DNA from: an uncultured virus (IMG/VR IMGVR_UViG_2687453592_000007)
Lineage: Duplodnaviria > Heunggongvirae > Uroviricota > Caudoviricetes
Strand: one strand, 5' to 3'
Virus record (IMG/VR): IMGVR_UViG_2687453592_000007
DNA: 21,500 bases
Shown here: positions 1 to 21,500 of the stretch, in pieces
How the letters are laid out: every line of letters begins with the position of its first letter
Numbering within the stretch: the stretch's first letter is position 1
Program-made: the position numbers and the translations under genes
Notes under the pieces: generated by a model
Seen by the model: only the letters and a program-made list of their open reading frames with translations
Told to the model about the DNA's origin: nothing
The model's database searches: none

Positions 1-154
1 CGCCAGGCCACTCCACATCGTCGCACAAGCGGTAGAGGTTGGTATCTGGGTGGCCAATTAACGCGAAGGCCTCCGCCTCCGTGTCAGCCCGCACGTAGCC
101 TTCGGGAGGGTTGGGCGTGGTGATGTCGGCGGCTATGCTGAAGACCCAGATCAT
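1..154 (-). CDS. Small hypothetical protein, runs off the left edge (MIWVFSIAADITTPNPPEGYVRADTEAEAFALIGHPDTNLYRLCDDVEWPG...)
   Basis: ATG at 154 with GGAGGA Shine-Dalgarno ~10 nt upstream; open frame to the window edge. Translated by hand, no family recognised. Confidence 0.5.
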   Translation of the reverse strand, partial: MIWVFSIAADITTPNPPEGYVRADTEAEAFALIGHPDTNLYRLCDDVEWPG

Positions 155-307
155 ATGGGGAGAGTCCTCCAGCGCCGTTAAGGAAGGGTTAAAGCGGGCG
201 AGGATCGCTCTCCCAGCAACAAGGACGCGTCTGCAACATTCTCGCACCGTTCCCCATATGTCCGCCTATGGCTGAAACGAATTTGCGTTTGCTTTCAAAG
301 CGTCTCG

Positions 308-356
308 GCGGATTGCAAATCCGTGTACAGGAGTTCGATTCTCCTACTCGCCTCCA
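308..356 (+). tRNA. tRNA-Cys(GCA) 3' half only (att-site fragment, not an intact tRNA)
   Basis: GCGGA-TTGCAAA-TCCGT anticodon arm, CAGGAGTTCGATTCTCCT T-arm, ends CTCGCCTCCA. No 5' acceptor strand or D-arm upstream. Confidence 0.85.
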
Positions 357-373
357 TTTACTTTCAAGCACTT
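310..373 (+). repeat. Left att core of element 1; 64-bp direct repeat identical to 7159-7222
   Basis: GGATTGCAAATCC...CTCCATTTACTTTCAAGCACTT is present at both positions, each immediately next to an integrase 3' end. Confidence 0.95.
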
Positions 374-424
374 GGCTCGACCACCCGCTTGCGCGGGGCG
401 CTCCGTTTACAGCGCCGTTTACAG
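362..424 (+). promoter_or_regulatory. Left att arm of element 1: IHF-like site (362-374) and two arm-type repeats CCGTTTACAG (403-412, 415-424)
   Basis: TTTCAAGCACTTG has one mismatch to the IHF consensus WATCAANNNNTTR. The 10-mer repeats at 12-bp period and recurs at the other end of the element. Confidence 0.7.
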
Positions 425-430
425 TTTTGT

Positions 431-1483
431 TCACGCTACACCCCCTTTCGCATGGGCAAGTTTGATCAGAACGGCATCGGTTTCGTCGGGAGAAACACGG
501 GCGTAATGCTCGATCACGTTCGCCGCGTAGCGGACCGACCAGCCCATGTGATTGGCGATCTCCGCGAGCGAGAGACCCGCATTCAACAGCCGCGTCGCGG
601 CCGTCCCGCGCGCATCGTAAAGGCGCAGGTCATCGGACAGCTTCGCCTTGTCGCGCCACTGGCGGACGCCCTCGGATGCCCGGTGAGGCGTGAGGGCATT
701 GCCTCTCGCGTTGGTCAGGATCAGCAGCCGACTGGCCGGGGTTGTGTCGATAATTTCGGCCAGCTCAGGCGTGATCGGGATATGGGCCAGCCGCTTGCGC
801 TTGTTCGTCCTGACGCGCAGGCGACGGCCGAGAGGAGTCTGCTCGACATGGGCTTGGGTCAGCTTGATCAGGTCGGCCGGGCGCAGACCGGTCTCGCAGG
901 CAGCGCAAAGAACGCGGCGCACCCATTCCGGGGCAACCGCGTTGAACGCGGCGCGGTCGGTCTGGGTCCAGACGATTTCCGAGCGGTCCACATCATAAAG
1001 CCGATGCAGCTTGTGACAGTAATGCTCGGTCAGCTTGCCCTCCTGCACCGCCCAATTCAGGATGCGGACAGCATGAGTGCCCGCCATGTCGTGCTGTTTG
1101 GGCGAGTGCTTCCAGAGTGCCCGCCAGGCATTCACTTCCCCGCGCGCGCCGCGCTCCTCGAAGATAACGGCAGGCGCGTCCTTGAAATGCTCGGCAAAGC
1201 GCAGCGCCCATTTGCGGATGTCCGCGCGGGACCTTTCGCCTTTGGGCATCGCGGTGCTGGACAGGAAGTCATCCACCATCCTGGGCGTCATGTAGTCGGC
1301 CGGTTGCGGTCGGGCGGCGGCGTCCGCGAAAGCCTGATAGAAGGCCGGATCGCGGGGCTTGCAGTATTCATCTTCCCAGAATTTCGGGCCTCCGCGCCAC
1401 GCATAGAAGTGAAAACGGCTCTTGCCGTTCGCCAGCTTCCGCCGGACCCGGTGCACGCCTTTGGGCAGGTCAGCTTGCGGCAC
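431..1483 (-). CDS. int: Tyrosine recombinase / phage integrase of element 1 (350 aa)
   Basis: Motifs ETGLRPADL, TNKRK, YDARGTAAT, HMGW, EHYAR; N-terminal arm-binding-like segment; adjacent to att. Confidence 0.95.
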   Translation of the reverse strand: MPQADLPKGVHRVRRKLANGKSRFHFYAWRGGPKFWEDEYCKPRDPAFYQAFADAAARPQPADYMTPRMVDDFLSSTAMPKGERSRADIRKWALRFAEHFKDAPAVIFEERGARGEVNAWRALWKHSPKQHDMAGTHAVRILNWAVQEGKLTEHYCHKLHRLYDVDRSEIVWTQTDRAAFNAVAPEWVRRVLCAACETGLRPADLIKLTQAHVEQTPLGRRLRVRTNKRKRLAHIPITPELAEIIDTTPASRLLILTNARGNALTPHRASEGVRQWRDKAKLSDDLRLYDARGTAATRLLNAGLSLAEIANHMGWSVRYAANVIEHYARVSPDETDAVLIKLAHAKGGVA

Positions 1484-1682
1484 GGCCTGCCCTCCACTTT
1501 TCGAGCGGCGTCATGTCCGGCGTAGCGGTATCGCCCGCCGCCACGGCTGTAATCAGGAAGCGCTTTCCATCGTTGGTCTCCACAACGATGGAAACCTGAT
1601 CATAGCCCGCAGCCTTCGCAGCTTCAAAAGCGGGTGTCAGGTCGGATTTTCGGATTGCGGCGGGACGGCGCTCCATCGTCAT
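1470..1682 (-). CDS. Small phage protein upstream of integrase (MTMERRPAAIRKSDL..., ~70 aa); possible directionality factor
   Basis: GGAGG RBS, ATGA overlap with the upstream ORF, 3' end overlaps int start. Function inferred from position only. Confidence 0.65.
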   Translation of the reverse strand: MTMERRPAAIRKSDLTPAFEAAKAAGYDQVSIVVETNDGKRFLITAVAAGDTATPDMTPLEKWRAGRAAS

Positions 1683-1828
1683 GCCTCCCCCAAACCGAGC
1701 GCGATCACGGCTATCTTGCCCGTGCGCGGGTCGATCTCGCCCCAACCCATCGGGATTTCGGCGCCGCAGCAGGCTTTGAGCACGCGCGCCACGTCTGCTT
1801 GGGTGAAGCTGTTCGGTTTGCAGGCCAT
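1679..1828 (-). CDS. Small phage protein (MACKPNSFTQADVARVLKA..., 49 aa)
   Basis: AAGGAG RBS before ATG at 1828. The FTQADVAR motif is typical of small int-adjacent alphaproteobacterial phage proteins. Stop overlaps the next start. Confidence 0.6.
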   Translation of the reverse strand: MACKPNSFTQADVARVLKACCGAEIPMGWGEIDPRTGKIAVIALGLGEA

Positions 1829-1975
1829 GTGCAGTTCTCCTTGCTGCGTTTCTATGGCGGAGAGAGGGGAGCGCCGGTTGGAATGGGAGCGTTGGCGAGA
1901 GTTACGCCAGCGAGACCTTGTATTCGCTCCCGCCCCCGAGAGCCGCTTGGACATGGATACTATCGACTTTGGCCA

Positions 1976-2581
1976 TCAGGCTTTGCCGCCTTCGAGCTCA
2001 TCCAACTCCGGCAGGTTGATCTCGCGCGCGGCATCCAGAACCTTCTTGCGCGCCAGGCTGAGGTTATAGAGTTGGAGGGACAGGGTTTCGCGTTGATCGA
2101 AGCCTTGCTTCAAGTCCGCAACCGCGCGCTCGATCTCCGACTTGGTGCCACCGTGCCAGGTGACTGAGAAGTTGGGGCCTTTCGTGATCTCCTCGATATC
2201 GGCGCAGGTCCAGACTTCGCGAGCGATCCAGATCTCCTCTTCCCAGACATCGAAGAGCCCGCGCGGAGGGTTCAACCAGGGCTTCGGACCAGGGTTATGG
2301 AAGTCGAACGGGCGCTGGATTTCGCCATGCTCGACCCGGGCGAATCCATTGCCCACAAAGGATTTGACATCCTGCGCTTTCAAACCGCCGCGGGTCAGGT
2401 CGAAATAGACCCGCATGCGGAGTGCATCGGACAGGGTGAAATCGGCCCACGAAAACACCGCCTCGTCGTCGGGGAAGCCGAAATTATCACCTTGAGCGAT
2501 GGGTAGAACGCCGCGACGGCGGCCCCCATCAAGCTCATTCCGCGTCCCCTCGGTGATTTTCAACAGATGGCTCTGGCGCAT
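1976..2581 (-). CDS. Hypothetical protein (201 aa), possible N-terminal DNA-binding region
   Basis: Long ORF co-oriented with the phage operon, protein-like composition; no family recognised with confidence. Confidence 0.7.
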   Translation of the reverse strand: MRQSHLLKITEGTRNELDGGRRRGVLPIAQGDNFGFPDDEAVFSWADFTLSDALRMRVYFDLTRGGLKAQDVKSFVGNGFARVEHGEIQRPFDFHNPGPKPWLNPPRGLFDVWEEEIWIAREVWTCADIEEITKGPNFSVTWHGGTKSEIERAVADLKQGFDQRETLSLQLYNLSLARKKVLDAAREINLPELDELEGGKA

Positions 2582-2753
2582 AGCTCTGGTCCCCCGCTTG
2601 CGTTTGCGAATATTGTTCGCAGACTATGGCAGTTCGCGCACGGTGTCCATATGCGAACTTTGTCCGCATCCTCCTCTGTCCGGTGCTTTGGCTACGCCGC
2701 AAACTGGCGGCAAGCGCCGGGCAGCCCGACGCGACGCGGCAGCGGTGCTCCAC

Positions 2754-3182
2754 TCAAGTCACCGGATAGCCGTCAAGGCCGGTGCAGGCCCTCCAGATTG
2801 AAGCGATGACGCGGCAATCATAGGACTGCGCCGCCGCTTCAAATCCCTCTGCATCTAGGTTGCCAGGGCTAACGAGGCTCCACGCCAAAGCCGTCAGAGC
2901 GGCGATGCCCTCCAGCGATGCAGGCTTGAGTGCCAGCATCATATCTTCGGCATCGTTCTCACGAGCCTCAGCGGCCAACGATCTCGGATCGTCCCAGTTC
3001 TCATTACCTGGAAGATCGGCCAGTTCGCGCCACTCTCGGCGGGCGCTGAGCCATTCGCGGTAGAGCGTGACCAAAGGGTCGACTGCACTCGCTTGGTCCA
3101 ACTGAGGCGCGTCAGCCAGGGCAACGCCAGAGCCAGGCAAGACCGCCAATGGGGCAGCGGCGAAGAAAGTCCGACGTTTCAT
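2754..3182 (-). CDS. Prophage hypothetical protein with twin-arginine-like N-terminus (142 aa)
   Basis: MKRRTFFAAAPLAVLP...ALA; ATGA overlap with 3179-3370. Confidence 0.8.
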   Translation of the reverse strand: MKRRTFFAAAPLAVLPGSGVALADAPQLDQASAVDPLVTLYREWLSARREWRELADLPGNENWDDPRSLAAEARENDAEDMMLALKPASLEGIAALTALAWSLVSPGNLDAEGFEAAAQSYDCRVIASIWRACTGLDGYPVT

Positions 3183-3370
3183 GCCCTCGCCTCCATCAGG
3201 CGGAGGGTGTGCCGCAGGGCCGTGCGCAGATAGCTGCGGGCCTCGCGTTCGCTCTGGGTGTACCGGCCGGGCCGCTCCGTGGCGTCGAGCGCGAGGGCGA
3301 GACAGTCGTGGATCTCATAAAGGCGGGCAGCAGGCAAAGCCGTGACGGCTGCCGGAAACGGGTTCGGCAT
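3179..3370 (-). CDS. Small prophage hypothetical protein (63 aa), first gene of the leftward operon
   Basis: GGAG RBS; divergent from the repressor; coupled to the next gene. Confidence 0.7.
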   Translation of the reverse strand: MPNPFPAAVTALPAARLYEIHDCLALALDATERPGRYTQSEREARSYLRTALRHTLRLMEARA

Positions 3371-3400
3371 TCTGGGCTCCGTTGATATGCGGTGGCGGTT

Positions 3401-3448
3401 TCGCTACAGTGTCTTCACGATAGCAACAAAATCGCTACTGTAAAGCGA
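3401..3448. promoter_or_regulatory. Putative operator region of the divergent switch
   Basis: TCGCTACAGT (3401-3410) and TCGCTACTGT (3432-3441) direct repeats plus an imperfect inverted copy ACTGTAAAGCGA, between the repressor and the leftward operon. Confidence 0.5.
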
Positions 3449-3469
3449 ATTGCACACGGTGAAGCGAAA

Positions 3470-3691
3470 ATGACACCCGCACAATGCCGAATGGCCAGAT
3501 CCGGCCTGTCCATGGGGGTCCGTGAGTTAGCGGAGGCTGCAGGCGTTTCAACCAACACGATCACGCGCTTAGAGAAGGGCGAGGCGCTGAAACCACGAAC
3601 GCTTGAGGCGATTCAATCGGCCCTTGAGTCCGCCGGTGTCGAGTTCATTCCCGAGAATGGCGGCGGACCAGGAGTGCGGCTTAGGAAATAG
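3470..3691 (+). CDS. XRE-family helix-turn-helix repressor (73 aa)
   Basis: MTPAQCRMARSGLSMGVRELAEAAGVSTNTITRLEKG...GVEFIPENGGGPGVRL is a classic alphaproteobacterial XRE pattern. Confidence 0.92.
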   Translation: MTPAQCRMARSGLSMGVRELAEAAGVSTNTITRLEKGEALKPRTLEAIQSALESAGVEFIPENGGGPGVRLRK

Positions 3692-3726
3692 AAATCTGAT
3701 CGGGTCCCACAAGTCAGATCGGGTAG

Positions 3727-4671
3727 CTATGCAGTCCACACGGGCCTGTCCCGCCAGTCGGTAGGAAACCCCATATTTGATCTATCCGCGTCTGATCTCT
3801 CCTCGATCAGCTCACGCAACCGGCTACGCAAAGTGCTATCCGTGCACTGCTGATCCATGAGATGAAGAAGAACCACAAAAACATTATAAATCCGATTGTC
3901 GTTCTGCCAATTTTGACCGTCGCACACCGCAACAAGGTCGCGTTTGAACCTTTTAATTTTAGGAAGCCGCTTGACTGTTCGGCGATTCCATAATCTTCCA
4001 TGGTGCGCACAAATATTACGCACATATGATAGAACCTGCAGGGTGCCTTCGACGATCTCTTTGGTGGGCAAGCCCAAGTCATGCCCTACCTTCGACTTGA
4101 TTGAATTGTCCTTTGTTGCTTGGAACCACTTTGAAAGCTCCCCAAGCGTCATCAATTCTGTAGCTGCCCAAAGCGGCGGAGAATAGGGGCTCGTGTATTT
4201 GCCCTTGTAGTGCACTATGAAGGTCTCTTCGGACTTATCCACTGCCCGAGCAAGACGGACGAGTTGTTCTGCGTGGCTCAACCCGTTGGAAAATAGTTCG
4301 TGATCTAGATGTGCATGGGGGCCGTAGGAATGCGACATATGGTAGGTCCAACGGGACCTCACATGAACCTCGACACGTTCAATCGCCTCAAGGACGATGA
4401 CGCGCAATCTACGATCAAAGACATATAGGTCAGTTACTGAAGAAAACGCTGTGCCGATATTAAAAATTTTACTGCGCGCGTCCGCCCCTTCAGCAACCTT
4501 TTCGAATGGCAGCCAATAGGCGCTTAGCCTGTAGTACCCAACTGTCTCAAGCCATTTTTTGGCGGCGCCGTGATCATCAACACTCATGCCTCTCTTTATT
4601 AGAAGCTGAAGTTGCTCATCAATATTGGTAGGCCGCTTAGTGAACTGCAACGTCGAAAGCAGGTCCCTCAA
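3727..4671 (-). CDS. Abi family protein (AbiD/AbiF, Abi_2-like) with HEPN RNase motif; start may be TTG at 4650
   Basis: EQLQLLIKRGM, VGYYRLSAYW, LYVFDRRLR, PPLWAATELMTLGELSKWF, HEPN motif RNICAHH; visibly more AT-rich than the flanks. Confidence 0.93.
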   Translation of the reverse strand: MRDLLSTLQFTKRPTNIDEQLQLLIKRGMSVDDHGAAKKWLETVGYYRLSAYWLPFEKVAEGADARSKIFNIGTAFSSVTDLYVFDRRLRVIVLEAIERVEVHVRSRWTYHMSHSYGPHAHLDHELFSNGLSHAEQLVRLARAVDKSEETFIVHYKGKYTSPYSPPLWAATELMTLGELSKWFQATKDNSIKSKVGHDLGLPTKEIVEGTLQVLSYVRNICAHHGRLWNRRTVKRLPKIKRFKRDLVAVCDGQNWQNDNRIYNVFVVLLHLMDQQCTDSTLRSRLRELIEERSDADRSNMGFPTDWRDRPVWTA

Positions 4672-4676
4672 ATAAG

Positions 4677-4730
4677 TAACCCCCCGGTATTGAGCTCGGC
4701 GTATCCGCCGGAAGCCTGGGGGGTGTTGTT
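4677..4730 (-). ncRNA. Candidate abiF-motif RNA (antitoxin/leader hairpin) upstream of the Abi gene
   Basis: ACCCCCC pairs with GGGGGGU, enclosing GCU-CGGCG(GAUA)CGCCG-AGC; lies between the promoter and the Abi start. Confidence 0.65.
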
Positions 4731-4737
4731 GCGAAGT

Positions 4738-4769
4738 TATCTACAGCAAGATGTACACCTTGTCAAGGT
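4738..4769 (-). promoter_or_regulatory. Sigma70-type promoter for the RNA/Abi unit
   Basis: TTGACA (4766-4761), 17-bp spacer, TAGATA (4743-4738). The palindrome ACCTTG-T-CAAGGT (4757-4769) overlaps the -35. Confidence 0.7.
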
Positions 4770-5078
4770 ACACGGTTCCGTCCGGTCCTCGCCGCCCGCA
4801 GCATCAAACTCCACTTAGGGACGGCACACACCGCCCTTAGATCTGCACATCGGCTGCTCGAAGACAGGCCGGGGCGTTTCCGCACCCCGGCCCGATGCCC
4901 GCCGCGCCCTGACGAAAACCCAGGCCGCGGGCTGTCGGGGTTCTTCGCCCACCATGCGGGACACTCACCGACTTGCCCCAATCGCGTTTGCGGACCCCTC
5001 CCCGCCAGGTGCGATCACCCCTGCCGCGTCAGAGCCGCCGCACGCGGCTCTGAGCATCCTTTTGGGCGGATCGCCGGA

Positions 5079-6188
5079 TCACGCGCCGGGGTTCTTGTAC
5101 CAGGCACGGTGATCGACGAACCCGGCCCCGAAATCGAGGCGCACCTTGAACTCGCTGGCATCGGTCTCGAAGCCGTCGCGGGTGAAGATCTGCGGCCCCG
5201 AAGCCCCGTCCAGATAGGCGTGCTGCAACGCATCGGGACGGCCCGGCAGGGCGGCGATGTACCAGGCCGCCGGGTCCGTCAGGTTGGCATCGGCCAGAAC
5301 CGTCAGCTTCTGCTGGAACGGGTTCACATCGTCGGCCGACGCGGCCGAGATTTCGGCCACCAGCCGTTCGGCCTGCGTTTCCAGCTCGGGCGGCACGATC
5401 AGAAGCGCGGGGTCCACCCGGATCGCCTCGCCCGCCAGCCCCTTCTGGCGACGCATCGCGGTGCGGGCGAGGGACAGCGAGCCGATGGAGAGGGCCGCGC
5501 CGGTCTCGGCCAGGTTGCCGTGATCGGCATGGAAGAGGGTCTTGCCATCCGACATGGCCGGACCCGCGCCGCCATTCGCCTCGAGGAGCCCGGCGAAGAT
5601 GCGCGCCTCGGTGAGCGCCGCACCCTGACCGAACAGCCGCGAGCTCTGCTCGAAAGCACGGAGGTCATCGTTCACGATGGCCTGGCGGGTCAGGGTGAAG
5701 ATCTTGCCATAGGTTTCCAGCACGAAGGCCTCGCCCGCGTCGGTGATCTGGCCTTGCCCGAACTCGCCGTTTTCCAGCACCTTCGCCAGTTCGACGCCGC
5801 CCGAGACGCGAACGGTGTTGATCGGCCGGAAATCCGGGGCCGAGACTTCGCGGGAGGCCTTCTTGATCTGCGACTCTGCGGCCTCGTAGGCCGCCAGCAG
5901 CACCTTGTTGGAGGCAATCGCCAAGGCCGTCTTGAAATCGTCGGCGCCCATCGCACCGCCCCACATCACGGCATGGCGCTGCCCCCGGAGGAAACTGCTG
6001 CCGGCCGACAGCCTCGCAAGGTCATCGAGCCGCATGTTCGCGAACTCCCGGCCGTGGGTCGGGACATGCCCGGACTGCATCCGCGCCAGAAGACCATCCG
6101 CCATCGCGTCGGCCCGAGACGGCGCTTCCTGACCGATGCCGATGGCGCAGGGGCGGATCGGCGGCTCGTTGCTGGCCATGAGCGCCAT
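5079..6188 (-). CDS. Phage major capsid protein (capsid part of a ClpP/scaffold/capsid fusion type)
   Basis: LAAYEAA, PDFRPIN, LAKVLENGEF, LETYGKIFTLTRQAIVNDDL, LFHADHGNL, LIVPPELE, KVRLDFGAGFVDHRAWYKNPGA. Frame open back to ~6280. Confidence 0.88.
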   Translation of the reverse strand: MALMASNEPPIRPCAIGIGQEAPSRADAMADGLLARMQSGHVPTHGREFANMRLDDLARLSAGSSFLRGQRHAVMWGGAMGADDFKTALAIASNKVLLAAYEAAESQIKKASREVSAPDFRPINTVRVSGGVELAKVLENGEFGQGQITDAGEAFVLETYGKIFTLTRQAIVNDDLRAFEQSSRLFGQGAALTEARIFAGLLEANGGAGPAMSDGKTLFHADHGNLAETGAALSIGSLSLARTAMRRQKGLAGEAIRVDPALLIVPPELETQAERLVAEISAASADDVNPFQQKLTVLADANLTDPAAWYIAALPGRPDALQHAYLDGASGPQIFTRDGFETDASEFKVRLDFGAGFVDHRAWYKNPGA

Positions 6189-6261
6189 GGCCTCGTTCGC
6201 GGCGACCCGGGCGATTTCCTTGGTGATCGCCGCCGCGTCGGTCTCCGGCAGAGCGAGACCC

Positions 6262-6562
6262 GCCAGGCGAGATTGGACGGCTCATGGATCATCAGATGCG
6301 CCGCGCGGTGCATGGCAATCTCGGCCGCCCCCATCACCAGGAGCGACGCGGCAGACGCCGCCACGCCCAACACTTCCACCCGGACCTGCCCGTGCCGGTC
6401 GAGCTGGGCCAGGATCGCGGCCCCGTCCGAGGCAATCCCGCCATAGGAATTGACGGCGATCACCACCGGCACGCCCGCATTGTCGTCCAGGAAGGCGCCG
6501 ATCCGGGGCGGGGTATTCTCGCCCTCGCCAATCGGCCCGTAGATATGAAGGGTTTCGGTCAT
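6262..6562 (-). pseudogene. N-terminal fragment of a ClpP-like prohead protease, out of frame with the capsid gene
   Basis: IYGPIG, INS-like VNSYGG, AASAAS (catalytic Ser), LMIHEP (His); similarity ends at NLAW and the Asp-bearing half is missing. Confidence 0.8.
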
Positions 6563-6666
6563 TCTGATACCTGAGCTTTGGGGAGCTGTTGCGGTTGCGC
6601 CGAGGGAGCGGCGGCGAGGCAGCTGCTGCTCGGCCGCTGGCTCTTCGGATTGGCAAGCCGTCTCAT
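6559..6666 (-). CDS. 35-aa linker ORF (MRRLANPKSQ...KAQVSE), possibly a deletion-fusion remnant
   Basis: ATGA overlaps at both ends (with 6663 stop and 6562 start); translated by hand. Confidence 0.4.
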   Translation of the reverse strand: MRRLANPKSQRPSSSCLAAAPSAQPQQLPKAQVSE

Positions 6667-7220
6667 GCCGCCACCTCGATTTCCGAGATATGCCGGAGGA
6701 ACGCGGTCTGATCGCGCGGCGCCATCGCCTCGAAAGAGGCCAGCGCGAAGGCTTTCAGCTCGGCCCGGTTGGCGAGCGAGGCCCAGAACCGGGCTTCCTC
6801 CATCCCGCGCAGGAACGGGGGCATGGGCGCCCCGGCCGCGCGCAGCACTGTGGCCGCCGTCATTTCGGCCTGCTCGGGCTCCAGCGACCGCAACGCCGCA
6901 TAGGCCAGCGAGGCCCGCTCGCGCGCCGTGAGCCGCACCATGGCCAGGAGGCGGAACCAGTCCCAGCCATCGAAGGACGCATAAGTCAGCGCATGGCCGA
7001 GAACCCGCGCCATCCGCTTATGCGCGGGCTTGATGTCTTTGGAGAGAAGTTTCGAGGAACGACTGCCGTTTACAGGCGCCTCGTAAGCGTTTGTTTTTTG
7101 AGAGGTCAGACCTGGGGGGCGTTTACAGGATTTGTCCGCGTTTTCCGTGTGGTCGGAAGGATTGCAAATCCGTGTACAGGAGTTCGATTCTCCTACTCGC
7201 CTCCATTTACTTTCAAGCAC
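6663..7220 (-). CDS. Phage/satellite hypothetical protein whose 5' end runs into the att core; start uncertain
   Basis: Protein-like region KPAHKRMARVLG...ARFWASLANRAELKAFALASFEAM...EIEVAA; frame open through the att arm and core up to TAA at 7223-7221. Confidence 0.7.
   Translation of the reverse strand: MLESKWRRVGESNSCTRICNPSDHTENADKSCKRPPGLTSQKTNAYEAPVNGSRSSKLLSKDIKPAHKRMARVLGHALTYASFDGWDWFRLLAMVRLTARERASLAYAALRSLEPEQAEMTAATVLRAAGAPMPPFLRGMEEARFWASLANRAELKAFALASFEAMAPRDQTAFLRHISEIEVAA
7065..7128 (+). promoter_or_regulatory. Right att arm of element 1: CGTTTACAG repeats (7067-7075, 7120-7128) flanking an IHF-like site (7084-7096, minus strand)
   Basis: Same 9-mer as at 404-412 and 416-424; AAACAAACGCTTA has one mismatch to WATCAANNNNTTR. 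Confidence 0.7.
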
Positions 7221-7222
7221 TT
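7159..7222 (+). repeat. Second att core (tRNA-Cys 3' fragment): right end of element 1 and left end of element 2
   Basis: Identical to 310-373; no 5' tRNA half upstream. Confidence 0.95.
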
Positions 7223-7267
7223 AGCGGGTTTCCGCGCTCCAGCGCGAAGCGGTGTCTAAGCAAGCGT

Positions 7268-8317
7268 CTAAACATTCCGTTTTTGTTCTGTTCGCCTTTT
7301 CGTGGCAAGGCCCTCGCCCGTTGAGGGCTTCTTCCGGCGAGCCTGGGCCTCTATGGCGCGCACGCGCTGCCGGATCTGCTGCGTGTAGTGCGCGACCATC
7401 TTGGGGCTTTGCCCCGTGACCGCGGCCACCAGCTCGTCAGTGCATCCAGCCTCGACCAGTTCGCACGCGGCATTGTACCGCCAACTGTGGATGTCGAAGT
7501 CCAGCGCCCCGATATCTTCCCGGATCTTGCGAATGGCCTGCGATGCTCCGCGATAGGACCAGCGGCTGGTTCCGCTTTGGTTCGTCAGCATGAACAGCGA
7601 CCGGCGCGGCGCCCTGTCCAGCGCCTCCTGGAGCGAAGGCACAATGGGCACCCAAAGCCGCTTGCCGGTCTTGTTCTGTTTGACCGTGATGCCCCCATCC
7701 TGGATATCGCCCCATTGCATTTCCAGCACATCGCCGATGCGCTGGCCGGTTCCGAGGCACAGCTCCATCAGCAGGCGCTCGCGCGCCCCCAGCGGCACGG
7801 CAGCACGAAAAGCGTCGATCAGGCTTTGCGGCCATGGCAGGCGCGGATCCGCATCCGCCTTCAGCAACGACACCCCCTTGGCTGGGTTATCGGTGCGCCA
7901 GCCAAGATCGATGCTATGCTCCATCAGAATGCGGATCACCTTCACCGCGTAGTTCGCGAAATACGGTTTCCCTGCGTTCTCATCGCGCAAGCGTATCACA
8001 TCCCGACGCTGGAGGTTTGCCGGGTTCAGCGGGCCGAACCGTTCGTCGATGAACGCCGTGAACTTGTCATAGTCCAGCGCCGTGCGGGGCTTCAGGTTCC
8101 GGTAACGCGGCGACTGGTGGTAACTGCGGATAAGAGCGGAAAAGTTCCTGCGCAGAACCTTGGCCTGCCCCTCTCCTTTCAGGATAGCAGCGTATTCGGC
8201 CCAGAACTCCGGGCTGCCGAAGTCCGACCCGATCTTTTGCGACGGCCACCCACGGCGCTGAAAATACAGACCATTTCGCTGCCAGTACACATATTTAGGA
8301 AGCTCTCGCTTCGTCAT
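7268..8317 (-). CDS. int: Tyrosine recombinase / phage integrase of element 2 (~349 aa from MTKRELPKYVY)
   Basis: GTGQRIGDVL, KQNKTGK, IHSWRYNAA, AHYT; adjacent to att. Confidence 0.95.
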   Translation of the reverse strand: MTKRELPKYVYWQRNGLYFQRRGWPSQKIGSDFGSPEFWAEYAAILKGEGQAKVLRRNFSALIRSYHQSPRYRNLKPRTALDYDKFTAFIDERFGPLNPANLQRRDVIRLRDENAGKPYFANYAVKVIRILMEHSIDLGWRTDNPAKGVSLLKADADPRLPWPQSLIDAFRAAVPLGARERLLMELCLGTGQRIGDVLEMQWGDIQDGGITVKQNKTGKRLWVPIVPSLQEALDRAPRRSLFMLTNQSGTSRWSYRGASQAIRKIREDIGALDFDIHSWRYNAACELVEAGCTDELVAAVTGQSPKMVAHYTQQIRQRVRAIEAQARRKKPSTGEGLATKRRTEQKRNV

Positions 8318-8471
8318 ACCGCATATCCACCCTATCGAACTCGGAAAGGACTTCCTGCTCCGTTTCAAGCTCGAACTCGATTCGTCTTCCCTCGATCACC
8401 ACCCGTTTGACAACCCGCCCTTCGGCCTCAAGGGCCCTCAGGTAATTCAGGGCCCGCTTCTCAGCCGTCAT
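8295..8471 (-). CDS. Small int-adjacent phage protein (MTAEKRALNYL..., 58 aa)
   Basis: GGGAGG RBS; overlaps int start; same position as 1470-1682 in element 1. Confidence 0.7.
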   Translation of the reverse strand: MTAEKRALNYLRALEAEGRVVKRVVIEGRRIEFELETEQEVLSEFDRVDMRYDEARAS

Positions 8472-14411: not shown

Positions 14412-14624
14412 GCCCGCGATCCGGTCAACCTGCTGCTCGTCAGCGCGTCGGCGGACCGCTCGAAAGACGCGCGCGGGCCGCTCGACTGGTTGCCGCCGGA
14501 TCCGGGGCTCCGCTGCCAGTATGTCCCGCGGTTCCGGCGGATCGCCGCGAGCTACGGCTTGGTGCAGTCCGCAGCCGAGGAGCGGGAACTGGTGGCGCTG
14601 ACCGGGCGGCTGTGTGGGACATAA
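14412..14624 (+). pseudogene. C-terminal fragment of a DUF1524-type HNH endonuclease
   Basis: Hand translation: RDPVNLLLVSASADRSKDARGPLDWLPPDPGLRCQYVPRFRRIAASYGL...; no start, upstream TAA at 14394. Confidence 0.7.
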
Positions 14625-14719
14625 GAGCGGGTAGCAGATGGGGTGGATGGCTCCCGCTCCCGGCGTCGCGATGCGCCATACTGCAGGTGTCAGAATCTGC
14701 AATTGAGAGGAGCCACCCC

Positions 14720-15739
14720 ATGCAAGTTACCACTGTCGGCCTCGACCTGGCCAAGAACATCTTTCATGTCCACGGAGTTACCGAGACCGGAGAGGTCGCC
14801 TTCAATCGGCCTTTACGCCGGGCGCAGGTGCTGGCGTTCTTCGAGCGACTGCCGCCCTGCCTCATCGGCATCGAAGCCTGCGCATCGAGCCACCACTGGG
14901 GCCGTGAGCTTACGAAGCTCGGTCATACTGTCCGGCTGATGCCGCCGATGTACGTCAAACCCTACGTGAAACGGGGCAAGTCCGATGCGGTCGATGCAGA
15001 AGCCATTTGCGAGGCCGTGACGCGGCCGACGATGCGGTTTGTCGAGATCAAGTCCGAGGACCAGCAGGCGCTTCTCTCCTTGCATCGCGCACGGGACTTC
15101 GTGGTTCGACAGCGCACTCAGTTGATCAACATGCTCCGAAGCCTGGCCGCGGAGTTCGGGATCGCCATCGCTCGGGGCGTCGCGCGGGCCATCGATTTTG
15201 CGAAAGGGATCATCGAGGGCAAGCAGTCCGGGTTCCCCGAGCTCGCCCAGGACGTTCTGCGGGTCCTCAGCCGTCAGCTGGTCGAGCTCCACAACCGCTT
15301 TCGCTGGTACGAGATCACGATGCGTATCCAGGCTCGTCTCAGCCGCCAGGCGCAACTCCTGCAGAGCATTCCCGGAGTTGGGCCGGTCACCGCCTCGGCC
15401 GTGGCCGCCACGATCGGATCGGGTCACCAGTTCAAGAGTGGGCGGGAATTTGCGGCGTGGCTTGGTCTGACACCGCGCAACCACTCCAGCGGTGGCAAGG
15501 AGCGCTTAGGGAAGATCACCAAGATGGGCGATCGGTATCTGCGTCAGCTTATCGTCGTCGGCATGACATCGCGTGTGCGGCAGGTCTCCAACCATCCGGA
15601 GCGTGCCGATCCCTGGCTGACGAAGCTGCTGCAGAGGAAGCCTGCCCGGCTCGCGACCGTCGCCATGGCGAACAAGACGGCGCGGATCATGTGGGCGGTG
15701 CTGACCAGGAACGAATCCTACCGACCTCACACAGCCTGA
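14720..15739 (+). CDS. IS110-family DEDD transposase/recombinase (339 aa)
   Basis: GLDLAK, GIEAC, KSDAVDA, IPGVG, AWLGLTP..HSSGGK; GAGGAG RBS. Confidence 0.97.
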   Translation: MQVTTVGLDLAKNIFHVHGVTETGEVAFNRPLRRAQVLAFFERLPPCLIGIEACASSHHWGRELTKLGHTVRLMPPMYVKPYVKRGKSDAVDAEAICEAVTRPTMRFVEIKSEDQQALLSLHRARDFVVRQRTQLINMLRSLAAEFGIAIARGVARAIDFAKGIIEGKQSGFPELAQDVLRVLSRQLVELHNRFRWYEITMRIQARLSRQAQLLQSIPGVGPVTASAVAATIGSGHQFKSGREFAAWLGLTPRNHSSGGKERLGKITKMGDRYLRQLIVVGMTSRVRQVSNHPERADPWLTKLLQRKPARLATVAMANKTARIMWAVLTRNESYRPHTA

Positions 15740-16026: not shown

Positions 16027-16860
16027 GATGATGTGGATGGCCCCTGCTCCCCCGGCGTCGCGATGTGCCATAGTGCAGTTGTCATCGACTGCTGAGAGAG
16101 GAGCCACCCAATGACAGTCAATACGGTCGGCCTGGATTTGGCCAAGGATGTCTTTCAGGTTCACGGGATTTCCGCGAATGGGCGCGTCATTTTCAACAAG
16201 ACGGTGAAGCGCGCCAAGCTTCTGCAATTCTTCGAGGCCCTGCCGCCCTGCGTCGTCGGGATGGAGGCGTGTGGGTCCGCCCATCACTGGGGCCGCGAAT
16301 TGGGCAAGCTCGGTCACGACGTCCGGCTGATGCCTGCGGGCTATGTGAAACCCTATGTGAAGCGGGGCAAGACCGACGCGGTCGATGCCGAGGCGATTTG
16401 CGAGGCGGTGCGCCGACCCACGATGCGCTTCGTCGAACTGAAGACGGAAGATCAGCAGGCGATCCTGGCGATCCACCGCACCCGCGATCTTGTGGTCCGG
16501 CAGCAAACCCAGATCGTGAACATGATCCGCAGCATCTTGCGCGAATTCGGCCACATCCTGCCGACCGGAGTGGGCGCCATCCTCACCTTTGCCAAACGCC
16601 ACCTCGGCGGGGACCATCCCGACATGCCGGAACTGGCCAACGGTATTCTCGGGACGCTGTGCCATCAGCTGGTGGGCCTCAACACCCGGGTCGTCGGCTA
16701 CACCAGGATGATCGAACAGCACGCCATGATGACGGCAGATGCCCGGCGGCTGATGCGCATACCCGGGATCGGTCCGATTACCGCCTCGGCCATCATCGCC
16801 ACGATCGGCGATGCGAAACAATTCCGGACCGGGCGCGATCTGGCGGCCTGGCTGGGTCTG
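16027..16860 (+). mobile_element. Related but distinct IS1111-group element, right part deleted
   Basis: Left end GATGATGTGGATGGCCCCTGC resembles copy 1; no right IR or non-coding region. Confidence 0.85.
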
Positions 16861-16884
16861 TTCCACAACAGGCCCGCACAATAG
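16111..16884 (+). pseudogene. Truncated IS110-family transposase (257 aa)
   Basis: Homologous to 14720-15739 up to AAWLGL, then diverges; lacks the SSGG catalytic serine region. Confidence 0.92.
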
Positions 16885-18185: not shown

Positions 18186-19073
18186 TCAGGAAGATTTATT
18201 TCGCCGCTTCCCCGCAATGGACTCCAATAGCTCCGGTGAGCTGGATGCAATTTCTTTTCCGATTCGCATCAAGTATATATTTATTCGGCGGATTCTATCC
18301 CGAGGCAACAGTGTCTCAGCAAGCAAGTCACGCCCCGCCTTCCCTACAAGAACTACCGCCAATTGCGGTAGCAAGGGCATCCAGAGTTCTGATTGGGGGT
18401 TGACCAAACCATTGGACCCACCGTTCCCGAGCCGCGCGACAGCGGCGCTCGATAGGATGAACGAATGATGTCTTTCACACCGAACCCATCGGACTGATCG
18501 CTCGTGTAGTAGTTTCAAAAATTGTTCCGAAGGGCGTAACGCGGCTTGAACTCGCGCTGAACGAGAAAGTAGCTCCTGCTGGGAGGGATCTTTTATTTTC
18601 TTAAGAAAGTTGCGACCCGCAGGAGTTAGATTAAATATATCCAAGGGCAAATTTTCCACGGCATCTTGCACCATCTGGCGTGTGCGGCTGGCTTGGTCAA
18701 ACTCCGGAATGAAATCCGGCGTTCTCTTTAACATCTCGGCAATAACTTCGCGCAGAGAGTGCTCAATTTTCCCTTCAAGCGTTGGAAGTTTTCCCTTTTC
18801 AAACGCAATCTTAAGCTCAGGGAGTAGCTCTCCTAGAAAGTTATCAATGGGACCGTAGTGGTTTCGCTCCACCTCGTCTGAAGGACGACCTTCGTTGTAA
18901 ATTGTATAGTAGTTTCGGCGCTGAAAGAACGTCCTAATATTTCGGATTCTCGGGTTATCGTATTCGCCGCTGCGAGTCTTCTTCGCGTACCACAGCTGCT
19001 GTTTTCCGGAGGCAAAGGCGCGCTGCAGAGCTTGAGGTATATAATGATGGCCTTTGCTGCGTTGATTCTTCAT
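18186..19073 (-). CDS. DUF4238 domain protein (~295 aa)
   Basis: N-terminal HHYIPQALQRAF, FFQRRNYY, VERNHYGPID, FILSSAAV, LWMPLLPQLAV, RRIN motifs. Confidence 0.85.
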   Translation of the reverse strand: MKNQRSKGHHYIPQALQRAFASGKQQLWYAKKTRSGEYDNPRIRNIRTFFQRRNYYTIYNEGRPSDEVERNHYGPIDNFLGELLPELKIAFEKGKLPTLEGKIEHSLREVIAEMLKRTPDFIPEFDQASRTRQMVQDAVENLPLDIFNLTPAGRNFLKKIKDPSQQELLSRSARVQAALRPSEQFLKLLHERSVRWVRCERHHSFILSSAAVARLGNGGSNGLVNPQSELWMPLLPQLAVVLVGKAGRDLLAETLLPRDRIRRINIYLMRIGKEIASSSPELLESIAGKRRNKSS

Positions 19074-19610
19074 CAAATCTGCCGCCAAGCATATTTTCGA
19101 GTGAATTCCTGAACTCGAGATGCTCACGATTCCGGAGGAATATATACGCCCGCATGTCAAAGTAAAGTAACTATCATTTTATTCTAAGGAAATTATTGAC
19201 ATTATGAAGGCCTAGGCATCCAGTCTTGGTATCTTCGGTAACGAGTAGGCGGCTGAATTTGGCGACGCAGGTCGCTGGTGCGTTGAAGATCAGTTCTCGG
19301 AAATCTCCACCTATGCTCGGTGAGGATCTTGAAAAGTAGCTTCTTGCCCAAAGTACCAGCGTCTGCCGGGTGGCCCGGGGAGATCTCAGAGGCCTGACTC
19401 GTCCGGTTCGGGGCTGCGACCGGCAACCCGCTGCACGAGGCACGAAGGACCGGTTTGGGCCGTGAGCGACGCCGCGCGAGGGGCGATCAGGCGCTTGCCC
19501 CTGCGGCGCGGCGAAGGTCGGGAACGAGCCTATTCCGTTGAAAAACGCGACTTGTCCGAAGGTCTGACCGTTGATTCAATATCGCTGCAACCGGCTCGAA
19601 ATACCCGCTG

Positions 19611-20297
19611 ATGGCTTACCTGTTCTTCCTCAAGGACATGGACCGCTTCATGCCGATCCAACCCACCGGCTTCGACCGTGTCTTCGGTGAGATCGGCCTG
19701 GAATTCCGCACCCTGCGCAATTGTACCTGGGAGAACTACAGCCATTTCAACGGGATCCTGAACGCCCTACGCAAGCCGATCGCAGATCAGGCCAAACTGG
19801 AACACGTCCGCCTTATCGACGCCCATTCCCTGCTGTGGCCATTCTCGACCCTGTTGGGGAGGGAAGCCAAGGGCGACTTGGCCAATGGTGAAAGGGCCGA
19901 CGCGCGACACCTCGGAGCCAGGGAAAAATCGATTGCCGACATTAAGTATTCGGTGGGCAAGACGGTCTTCAACTCCAACGGCCAGGTGATCCCTTCGACC
20001 GTCAAGAACAAGGAGCTGCATATGTCCGACGCCGAGTTGGACAAGCTGATCCGGGACCTTCTCACCATCCAGGAAGACCGCTGCGCCATCACCGGCCTGC
20101 CGTTCCAGTTCCGGGGCGCACAGACGGACGACAACATGCTGCCCTCCTTGGACCGCATCGACAGCAATGGGCACTACGCCAAGGAGAACCTGCAGTTGGT
20201 CTGCCGTTTCATCAACTTCTGGAAGCAGGCATCTGATGACGGTGAGTTCCGCAGGTTGGTTGGCGTCGTTCGTGGCGATGATATGGAAGGTGGATAG
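19611..20297 (+). CDS. Protein with C-terminal HNH-like nuclease motif, probably N-terminally truncated (228 aa)
   Basis: QEDRCAITGLPF...PSLDRIDSNGHYAKENLQLVCRFINFWK; no RBS, and the frame is open only a few codons upstream. Confidence 0.75.
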   Translation: MAYLFFLKDMDRFMPIQPTGFDRVFGEIGLEFRTLRNCTWENYSHFNGILNALRKPIADQAKLEHVRLIDAHSLLWPFSTLLGREAKGDLANGERADARHLGAREKSIADIKYSVGKTVFNSNGQVIPSTVKNKELHMSDAELDKLIRDLLTIQEDRCAITGLPFQFRGAQTDDNMLPSLDRIDSNGHYAKENLQLVCRFINFWKQASDDGEFRRLVGVVRGDDMEGG

Positions 20298-20397
20298 CAC
20301 GCACCGAAACTACGGAACGAAAAATACAGATACCAGATCGGCCCATTGCCGCCGTTGGCCGATGTCTAGCAATGCTGCGGTGCGGCCCGTCAGAGGA

Positions 20398-21500
20398 GAT
20401 GGGGTGGATGGCTCCCGCTCCCGGCGTCGCGATGCGCCATACTGCAGGTGTCAGAATCTGCAATTGAGAGGAGCCACCCCATGCAAGTTACCACTGTCGG
20501 CCTCGACCTGGCCAAGAACATCTTTCATGTCCACGGAGTTACCGAGACCGGAGAGGTCGCCTTCAATCGGCCTTTACGCCGGGCGCAGGTGCTGGCGTTC
20601 TTCGAGCGACTGCCGCCCTGCCTCATCGGCATCGAAGCCTGCGCATCGAGCCACCACTGGGGCCGTGAGCTTACGAAGCTCGGTCATACTGTCCGGCTGA
20701 TGCCGCCGATGTACGTCAAACCCTACGTGAAACGGGGCAAGTCCGATGCGGTCGATGCAGAAGCCATTTGCGAGGCCGTGACGCGGCCGACGATGCGGTT
20801 TGTCGAGATCAAGTCCGAGGACCAGCAGGCGCTTCTCTCCTTGCATCGCGCACGGGACTTCGTGGTTCGACAGCGCACTCAGTTGATCAACATGCTCCGA
20901 AGCCTGGCCGCGGAGTTCGGGATCGCCATCGCTCGGGGCGTCGCGCGGGCCATCGATTTTGCGAAAGGGATCATCGAGGGCAAGCAGTCCGGGTTCCCCG
21001 AGCTCGCCCAGGACGTTCTGCGGGTCCTCAGCCGTCAGCTGGTCGAGCTCCACAACCGCTTTCGCTGGTACGAGATCACGATGCGTATCCAGGCTCGTCT
21101 CAGCCGCCAGGCGCAACTCCTGCAGAGCATTCCCGGAGTTGGGCCGGTCACCGCCTCGGCCGTGGCCGCCACGATCGGATCGGGTCACCAGTTCAAGAGT
21201 GGGCGGGAATTTGCGGCGTGGCTTGGTCTGACACCGCGCAACCACTCCAGCGGTGGCAAGGAGCGCTTAGGGAAGATCACCAAGATGGGCGATCGGTATC
21301 TGCGTCAGCTTATCGTCGTCGGCATGACATCGCGTGTGCGGCAGGTCTCCAACCATCCGGAGCGTGCCGATCCCTGGCTGACGAAGCTGCTGCAGAGGAA
21401 GCCTGCCCGGCTCGCGACCGTCGCCATGGCGAACAAGACGGCGCGGATCATGTGGGCGGTGCTGACCAGGAACGAATCCTACCGACCTCACACAGCCTGA
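20398..21500 (+). mobile_element. IS110-family (IS1111 group) copy 2; right end beyond the window
   Basis: Matches copy 1 from AGATGGGGTGGATGG onward (offset 5761). Confidence 0.95.
20481..21500 (+). CDS. IS110-family transposase, same protein as 14720-15739
   Basis: Identical translation. Confidence 0.97.
   Translation: MQVTTVGLDLAKNIFHVHGVTETGEVAFNRPLRRAQVLAFFERLPPCLIGIEACASSHHWGRELTKLGHTVRLMPPMYVKPYVKRGKSDAVDAEAICEAVTRPTMRFVEIKSEDQQALLSLHRARDFVVRQRTQLINMLRSLAAEFGIAIARGVARAIDFAKGIIEGKQSGFPELAQDVLRVLSRQLVELHNRFRWYEITMRIQARLSRQAQLLQSIPGVGPVTASAVAATIGSGHQFKSGREFAAWLGLTPRNHSSGGKERLGKITKMGDRYLRQLIVVGMTSRVRQVSNHPERADPWLTKLLQRKPARLATVAMANKTARIMWAVLTRNESYRPHTA

Follow-up and report, generated by a model that had tools for sequence, protein, structure and literature searches.

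The window analysed here is a 21,500-nucleotide (nt) stretch from an uncultured virus record (IMG/VR IMGVR_UViG_2687453592_000007; Duplodnaviria, Heunggongvirae, Uroviricota, Caudoviricetes), and towards its left end it holds a small mobile element of a marine bacterium: a 6.85-kb integrative element at tRNA-Cys that spans 310-7223 and is bounded by two copies of a tRNA-Cys 3' fragment. The two attachment (att) cores, attL (310-373, plus strand) and attR (7159-7222, plus strand), are identical over 64 of 64 nt, and comparing 310-376 with 7159-7225 gives 66 matches in 67 nt, the sole mismatch being G at 374 against A at 7223. The repeat corresponds to tRNA-Cys(GCA) from the anticodon loop to CCA, plus 17 nt; ARAGORN detects no whole tRNA in the window, and an intact tRNA-Cys elsewhere in the same genome (L003) matches the core. 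As in other elements whose tyrosine integrase targets a tRNA gene, direct repeats of part of the tRNA flank the element and the integrase gene (int) adjoins one of them. The integrase (431-1483, minus strand; PF00589, phrog_1) is the last gene of an early operon and is 86-91% identical to those of three related elements, L014, L029 and L030. At the opposite end, on the same strand, the first open reading frame (ORF) inside attR is that of a gene that we call X (6663-7220).

Integration splits a reading frame that would otherwise run from the end of the integrase into X. An AAGGGGG resembling a Shine-Dalgarno (SD) sequence (447-441) precedes a GTG start codon (434-432) that overlaps the integrase stop TGA (433-431) in a GTGA, the whole signal occupying 432-447 on the minus strand; the SD duplex has a predicted energy of -12.0 kcal/mol, compared with a background median of -2.7. 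In the integrated state this start opens an ORF of 81 amino acids (aa; 189-434, minus strand) that passes through attL into flanking DNA, and the ORF of X (6663-7220, minus strand, 185 aa) is headless, its first codon directly following a TAA at 7223-7221; owing to the 374/7223 mismatch, the left copy has CAA on the minus strand where the right copy has TAA. Joining 434..310 to 7158..6663 in silico gives 621 nt that form a single ORF of 206 aa, of which the integrase-side arm of attP (375-430, minus strand) supplies the first 20 codons and in which the X frame is open through the X-side arm (7053-7158, minus strand). The X frame contains no ATG, GTG or TTG between the core and a Met codon at 7013-7011, and the integrase is complete in the integrated state, its stop lying 57 nt from the core in the window and 4-103 nt from it in relatives. 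Behind X, ATGA overlaps connect it to a 35-aa ORF (at 6663-6666) and that ORF to a ClpP-like ORF (at 6559-6562). This geometry had been proposed in an earlier, sequence-only reading of the stretch, and the GTGA overlap with its AAGGGGG, the ORF opened through the left core, the headless right-hand frame behind its TAA, the uninterrupted 206-aa ORF on joining the ends (reproduced by script) and the ATGA overlaps were all recovered. Between the integrase stop and X, no stop interrupts the X frame, compared with 3 and 5 in the other two sense frames; shuffling leaves this stretch open in only 3.6% of cases, and the open frame in the window exceeds chance.

Comparison with the true tRNA locus tells which of the two codons belongs to the element. 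The 64-nt core has four copies in the genome, and one of them, at C1:4082016, is part of the intact tRNA-Cys; what the window shows is therefore a single unit in an array of integrated elements arranged in tandem. To the right of 7223 lies the integrase arm of another element rather than plain host DNA, and the integrase of this neighbour (7268-8368, minus strand) lies outside the element discussed here. Since a near-identical integrase-proximal arm stands to the right of the true tRNA and to the right of 7223, A7223, and with it TAA, is target-derived and G374 (CAA) is owned by the element, being its first specific base, just as the sequence-only reading had assumed. Across the array (C1:4082016, L003; C1:4113749, L004; window 1-8400) the order is intact tRNA, integrase, a 44-nt core fragment, integrase, the window element and a fourth integrase, that at 7268-8368, after which no further core copy was found; the array crosses the start of the genome record.

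Relatives were sought with an alignment of 10 X sequences, and X is encoded at 32 genome loci, 32 loci in viral collections and 23 metagenome loci, with a match in 45 of 400 sampled genomes of Rhodobacteraceae (about one in nine). In the resolved members the att pairs are 9.6-10.8 kb apart, one copy of the tRNA repeat preceding the tblastn match to X by 80-230 nt (by 82-143 nt for 17 of the 18 elements resolved first) and the second just past an integrase at the far end; L141 has a putative pair of 28-nt non-tRNA repeats 11.3 kb apart. At least ten different att sites are used, the targets being tRNA-Cys (the 3' half or, in two elements, the 5' half, oppositely oriented), -Glu, -Arg(CCT), -Arg(TCT), -Leu, -Thr and -Phe, with three further cores that ARAGORN leaves unassigned. 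All but one of the genes are co-oriented, the integrase last at one end and X first at the other. At L014 the order is X, head-tail adaptor, a 76-aa protein, TerL, head-completion protein, major capsid protein, S78 protease, portal, small genes, an oppositely oriented regulator and the integrase, with PF05065, PF04586, PF04860, TerL domains, phrog_442, PF05521 and, for the integrase at 19022-20074, PF00589 recognised among them. Pfam and PHROGs identify no tail, holin or lysis gene among the 14 ORFs of L014 or the 15 of the window, in both of which small unannotated ORFs remain, and together with NCBIfam they identify no AlpA, primase-replicase or TerS in either. The window element belongs to this family of roughly 10-kb, capsid-encoding, tail-less, satellite-like integrative elements of Rhodobacteraceae, sharing both ends with its other members and not the middle, and measuring 6.85 kb against about 10 kb. 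A further relative, L031, is circular (9,993 bp, from a 10,048-nt contig with a 55-nt terminal overlap), and X has its own start there; by translation and gene order its ORFs are X, adaptor, a 569-aa ORF at the position of the L014 TerL, an ORF with an HNH-like Cys/His motif and further long ORFs, and tblastn with two window integrases finds no tyrosine integrase in it. Within the family, L031 may be plasmid-like or integrate in a different way.

The frame across the joint is conserved in this family. For each resolved att pair, attP was rebuilt by script from the integrase end, the integrase-side arm, the core and the X-side arm, and stops were counted over the stretch between the integrase stop and X's conserved KPxHK block. 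Of the 21 elements in the first set, 16 have an X frame free of stops, and the other two sense frames are never open (0 of 42 cases); in a second, separately fetched set, the X frame is open in 4 of 7 and the control frames in 1 of 14. Overall, 20 of the 28 junctions have an X frame that is open from the integrase stop onwards, and in 21 it spans the core, compared with 1 of 56 control frames, across at least ten att sites; the sequence-only reading had staked its case on such conservation in homologous elements, and it holds. At L035 the GTGA at the integrase stop opens a 17-codon ORF, which leads through an ATGA into a long X frame across the core, the ATG lying 49 nt after the integrase stop. 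Shuffling gives an open frame with a probability of 0.006-0.15 per locus. The integrated elements themselves provide a natural control: followed into the host side of attL, the same frame runs into a stop over a distance equal to the arm in 10 of 15 elements (with two flanks too short to count), compared with 0 of 17 for the X-side arm, despite the lower GC content of the latter. Indels between related arms are multiples of 3, and the tRNA sequence of the core is usually read antisense in the bridging frame. Chance as the cause of the open frame was rejected on the junction test, the control frames and the host-side control at attL.

The start signals follow the same pattern. Among the 17 core-spanning elements of the first set, 11 have a start at offset -1 from the integrase stop, as (A/G)TGA; three start at -5 or -11 and others at +6, +17 and +49. 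Scored against a generic anti-SD 9-mer, the SD duplex before the start is at or below -7.2 kcal/mol in 15 of the 17 (background median -2.7, 5th percentile -7.5). The internal Met codons of X, at positions -7 and 0 (position 0 being Met 7013-7011), are without SD in 21 of 21 elements, all at -5.6 or weaker, and L029 and L030 have no ATG, GTG or TTG at either position. In the remaining 7 of the 28 junctions, comprising all four tRNA-Thr elements (L010, L011, L032, L052) together with L134, L138 and L141, stops close the frame and X starts downstream of the core with its own start. Six of these starts, the ATGs of L010, L011, L032, L052, L134 and L141, score -6.9 to -11.4 kcal/mol; in L010 and L011 the ATG is 14-16 codons before Met 0, and in L032 and L052 it precedes the anchor by 8 and 10 codons. 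L138 first offers a TTG, at -1.5, as an open in-frame start, with an unscored ATG five codons later. The integrases of L134 and L138 are 83-86% identical to those of bridge-type elements, which indicates that the two solutions interconvert.

We consider it probable that X and the operon following it depend on excision through a translational bridge that spans attP. The early operon, that is, the small genes and then the integrase, would be driven by a regulated promoter next to the repressor gene; after induction and excision, the early transcript would run on over attP into X, and ribosomes would re-start at the codon overlapping the integrase stop, going on to translate X and the overlapping genes that follow. 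While the element is integrated, these ribosomes would run into the antisense tRNA and the flanking DNA (the ORF at 189-434), leaving X with neither start nor SD. The bridge would thus deliver ribosomes, and it probably guards against premature termination; more speculatively, continuous translation may shield the attP stretch of about 250 nt from Rho-dependent polarity. No terminator-like site is present on the minus strand between the integrase and X. With less assurance, we lean towards the broader view that a capsid-forming, satellite-like family of Rhodobacteraceae uses attP as coding sequence, such that ribosomes finishing the integrase re-start and cross the tRNA stretch into the structural operon, selection acting on the open frame as the peptide drifts, and late expression would be impossible before excision. 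Excision, read-through transcription, translation and the gating itself are here what we infer from the arrangement of the sequence.

Several points weigh against this mechanism. Substitutions in the bridge are spread evenly over the codon positions (for example, 21/16/16 and 33/33/32), and the GC content at third positions (GC3) is 0.53 in the window extension, compared with 0.85 in X proper, so that by both measures the bridge resembles non-coding DNA; one pair only shows a mild third-position excess (11/11/19). The 7 of 28 relatives that use X's own start mean that the bridge is not essential to the function of X, and the elements compared are relatives rather than independent samples, which places the weight on the at least ten att and arm types instead of the raw count. 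The anti-SD 9-mer behind the duplex energies was generic rather than taken from this genome. A weak promoter-like match (9/12) inside the core, on the minus strand, could drive transcription irrespective of excision. No attP or attB joint occurs in the contigs of a DNA run of the same strain (X1), and no clean circular contig with integrase, attP and X was found among the viral and metagenome contigs, which are mostly prophage cut-outs or broken at the core. In the window itself, the protease/capsid gene that follows is a broken chimera, and there are no TerL, portal or connector genes. One metagenome contig of 1,737 nt (L097) does carry an integrase, a short tRNA-like core and a diverged X in one piece; the ATG overlapping its integrase begins a frame in phase with X, but just before the core stands a single TAA with GTG after it. 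This is the same arrangement as at 7223-7218 in the window, and L097 could be a tandem junction. In three RNA runs of another strain (X8, X10, X11), low-depth contigs cover 6855-7205, reaching from the 5' part of X into the core, from which strand, ends and state are not distinguishable.

The arms also contain repeated DNA motifs. The arm type of the window has CTGTAAAC four times (404, 416, 7067, 7120), with 11 matches in the window against 2.2 expected, and two CGTTTACAG repeats stand in each arm (404-412 and 416-424 on the integrase side, 7067-7075 and 7120-7128 on the X side). Other motifs accompany other integrase types, GTGAAC/TGATAC in one and a tandem CTGTGCGG in the Thr type. The motifs in the window arms are read in two different frames, including the two X-side repeats, and are therefore DNA sites rather than peptide motifs; they are probably arm-type sites of the integrase. 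The att core contains CGTGTACAG (322-330, 7171-7179), one mismatch from the arm repeat CGTTTACAG, and the core-type and arm-type sites of the window integrase may resemble each other. Outside the motifs, the arms have diverged to about 50% identity. Because substitutions are even over the codon positions, the X frame is free of stops and indels come in threes, the bridging peptide seems not to be under amino-acid selection, and an uninterrupted translational path seems to be what is kept. In the second X copy of the same genome, homology to the window begins exactly at the conserved block and ends at about 6260, and the different arm upstream of it reads tRNA-Pro in sense and is open in frame.

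An alternative is that translation of X begins within the gene itself (at Met 7013-7011 or, in relatives, at position -7) irrespective of excision, and that the open attP frame is untranslated DNA shaped by integrase and host-factor sites. Gene callers start the closest relative at the equivalent of Met 7013-7011 (P0002, 116 aa; Atlas record), Met 0 is kept in most relatives, and the lack of codon-position bias and low GC3 of the bridge, the conserved arm blocks that are DNA motifs in different frames and the 7 closed junctions of 28 would all be expected. This explanation nevertheless leaves unaccounted for the X frame that is open in 20 of 28 junctions when 1 of 56 controls is, the SD-bearing start at the integrase stop in exactly that frame and the indels in multiples of 3; moreover, the internal Met codons lack SD, L029 and L030 have no start codon there, and conservation of the X protein begins about 13 codons upstream of Met 0. 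We regard it as unlikely. The sequence-only reading had itself named an internal start as a danger to its proposal, and in 7 of the 28 elements X does have its own start. Still less probable, in our judgement, is that the extension encoded by attP is a functional part of the protein, such as a regulatory or DNA-binding tail, with the excised and integrated states yielding two isoforms of X. The long form of X is an intact ORF in 21 of 28 elements, and the extensions are rich in K/R/N/S/T/E/Q and in many cases begin with a similar M-N-(K/R/N)-T motif, but the extension is wholly different between att types, following whichever tRNA strand is used, shows no excess of synonymous changes and is missing from the relatives with their own start.

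A third explanation concerns the window alone and is compatible with the mechanism acting at the level of the family: the window element could be a decaying remnant that has inherited the split-ORF geometry and now controls nothing. The sequence-only reading had described a ClpP/capsid gene behind X, and ClpP-like and capsid parts are indeed present, but the gene (5079-6562, minus strand) is not intact, consisting of two overlapping ORFs (5966-6562 and 5079-6188) that are out of frame at a recombination breakpoint. Only the first 100 or so residues of ORF 5966-6562 align as the ClpP-like part (from 6562 to about 6262), and ORF 5079-6188, which is the capsid part, aligns with phrog_4523 at profile positions 292-644. 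Homology to the second copy in the same genome stops at about 6260 and homology to the capsid contig of another strain at about 6265; this protease/capsid fusion is therefore a recombinant pseudogene with a breakpoint near 6260-6265. Neither Pfam nor PHROGs identifies TerL, portal, connector, adaptor or head-completion genes in the window element, which is also shorter than its relatives, and the genome has two further fragments with X, the 35-aa ORF and ClpP sequence and no integrase. Set against these signs of decay are the intact integrase, early operon, cores (66/67) and 206-aa frame. We regard it as possible, without favouring it, that the window copy is wholly inert in this way; it may be a relic, and because the capsid gene downstream is broken, its switch probably no longer controls a working packaging module. 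The two fragments, each comprising X, the 35-aa ORF and the N-terminus of ClpP, are at C1:383118-383507 (L070, L073) and C1:424279-424650 (L071, L074); one of them has a tRNA-Pro(CGG) gene on either side, and its X frame leads out of the tRNA in sense. The stretch 4856-6265 recurs as a 99%-identical capsid-gene segment in contigs from RNA runs of the other strain, in a different context and at a contig depth of 203-378 compared with about 10 for other pieces, contig depth being a poor measure of expression.

The X protein has no family match in Pfam, PHROGs or NCBIfam. Its homologues are 116 to 224 aa long, and only the C-terminal 130 or so residues align; this conserved body occupies 6663-7052 (minus strand), and conservation starts about 13 codons before Met 7013-7011, which gene callers often choose as the start and which is replaced in some homologues. 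An AlphaFold2 model of the conserved 131-aa body is all-helical (predicted local distance difference test score, pLDDT, 79.6; predicted template modelling score, pTM, 0.46). Searched against the PDB with Foldseek, it gives a best E-value of 2, VIA-align wide gives a best Z of 5.7, which is in the chance range for helical proteins, and the ESM Atlas returns only clusters named 'hypothetical'. A small terminase would suit the position of X and was dropped as a candidate, there being no family, fold or name in support. The only homologue in a phage record, in Paracoccus phage vB_PmaP_KLEP18-1 (L148; record positions 29424-29750), covers the C-terminal third of X (53% identity over 39% of X) and is a lead only; it is a hypothetical gene that overlaps the start of the DNA primase-polymerase gene in the replication module.

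Genes split by integration are known from other systems. In myxophage Mx8, the bacterial tyrosine integrase IntP/IntX has attP in its coding sequence, and integration alters the 3' end of int. In the window, by contrast, attP begins 57 nt after the integrase stop, and the core is thus outside the integrase coding sequence instead of inside it as in elements of the Mx8 type or the Sulfolobus spindle-shaped virus (SSV) type. SSV-type ('suicidal') integrases are found only in archaea according to the available text of PMC8371274, which, as far as it goes, describes a similar situation in that attP lies within coding sequence, integration splits the gene and excision restores it, and a tRNA fragment is translated. 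In that same portion of the source, the split gene is the integrase itself, whereas in the window family the integrase is intact in both states and the gene that is split is the next one, coupled to it. In the conjugative transposon Tn916, promoterless transfer genes are expressed only once circularisation places them behind xis-int (Celli and Trieu-Cuot, 1998, as cited in the accessible part of PMC5812530). As in Tn916, a terminal module of the integrated element, here X with the genes following it, would depend on the joint, is co-oriented with the integrase and stands directly across the joint with no terminator-like site between; in the window family the dependence would be through the reading frame, and in Tn916, to judge from the same excerpt (PMC5812530), the link is transcriptional and there is no tRNA att site. 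A coding frame with its own start and SD that is split by attP and reads through the tRNA, with phage head and packaging genes downstream, sets the window family apart from Tn916. State-dependent switching of promoters for int is described for ICEKp1, ICEclc and ICEEc1 in the part of PMC13023037 at hand, and these elements, which are integrative and conjugative (ICEs), are similar in that the joined ends change the upstream signals serving an att-adjacent gene. In these ICEs it is int that is served, by a promoter at the far end, in the passages available, unlike X and the structural module, which would be served by translation continuing from the integrase.

In gene content, the family resembles phage-inducible chromosomal islands of the capsid-forming type (cfPICIs), which in the available text of PMC10085698 encode their own capsid, protease, portal, TerL and head-tail adaptor/connector, have no tail or lysis genes and have a median size of 14 kb, with capsid and protease fused in some members (PMC10085698). 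L014 is similar in having the integrase at the end, its own capsid, protease, portal, TerL and adaptor and no tail or holin genes. The window copy does not have a packaging module of its own, carrying only the broken protease/capsid fusion. Compared with the cfPICIs as portrayed in the same excerpt, the family is smaller (about 10 kb against 14 kb) and has no recognisable AlpA, primase-replicase or TerS, an XRE helix-turn-helix (HTH) regulator being present. Alphaproteobacteria are mentioned 0 times in the text of that paper (PMC10085698), and an attP-spanning gene did not turn up for cfPICIs in the portion available (PMC10085698). A search of a limited literature collection turned up neither an account of these Rhodobacteraceae elements nor one of satellites in which a structural-module gene spans attP. 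If the bridge operates as proposed, it would hard-wire an order of excision and then capsid production without a dedicated late regulator, the recombination product being the switch, and it would be a bacterial, non-integrase case of a gene split by integration and a translational counterpart, in phage satellites, of the Tn916 principle. The attP arms and the tRNA sequence would then be selectable solely for an open frame, and the variable annotated N-termini of X homologues would be explained, the upstream ORF of the integrated state being an accident of flanking host DNA. The analysis would also draw attention to a poorly described family of capsid-encoding islands of about 10 kb that has culturable hosts among those of its members. 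Intact members with a frame across attP include the tRNA-Cys elements of L014 (Epibacterium sp.), L029 (Puniceibacterium antarcticum) and L030 and the tRNA-Glu element of L013 (Aliiruegeria haliotis), and tRNA-Thr members with their own X start occur in Marinovum algicola (L010) and Rhodobacter capsulatus DSM 1710 (L011).

The other genes of the window element are less directly concerned. The early operon before the integrase (1470-3370, minus strand) comprises ORFs at 3179-3370, 2754-3182, 1976-2581, about 1679-1831 and 1470-1682, the last two of which overlap each other and the integrase gene; the small ORF preceding the integrase is 63-90% conserved in L014, L026, L029 and L030. Divergent from this operon is the XRE-type HTH regulator (3392-3691, plus strand), and a promoter-like pair lies beside it at 3382-3444. 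The 35-aa ORF behind X (6559-6666, minus strand) is found only among the copies in its own genome. An Abi_2 abortive-infection-like gene (3727-4671, minus strand; GC 0.50, compared with 0.62 for the element) separates the capsid remnant from the regulator and looks like defence cargo of the island. Beyond the element, the window has three IS110-family transposase genes (14612-15739, 16111-16884 and 20448-21500); two of the IS110 copies match at 100% identity along about 840 nt (14633-15469, 20394-21230), and one has about 72% identity.

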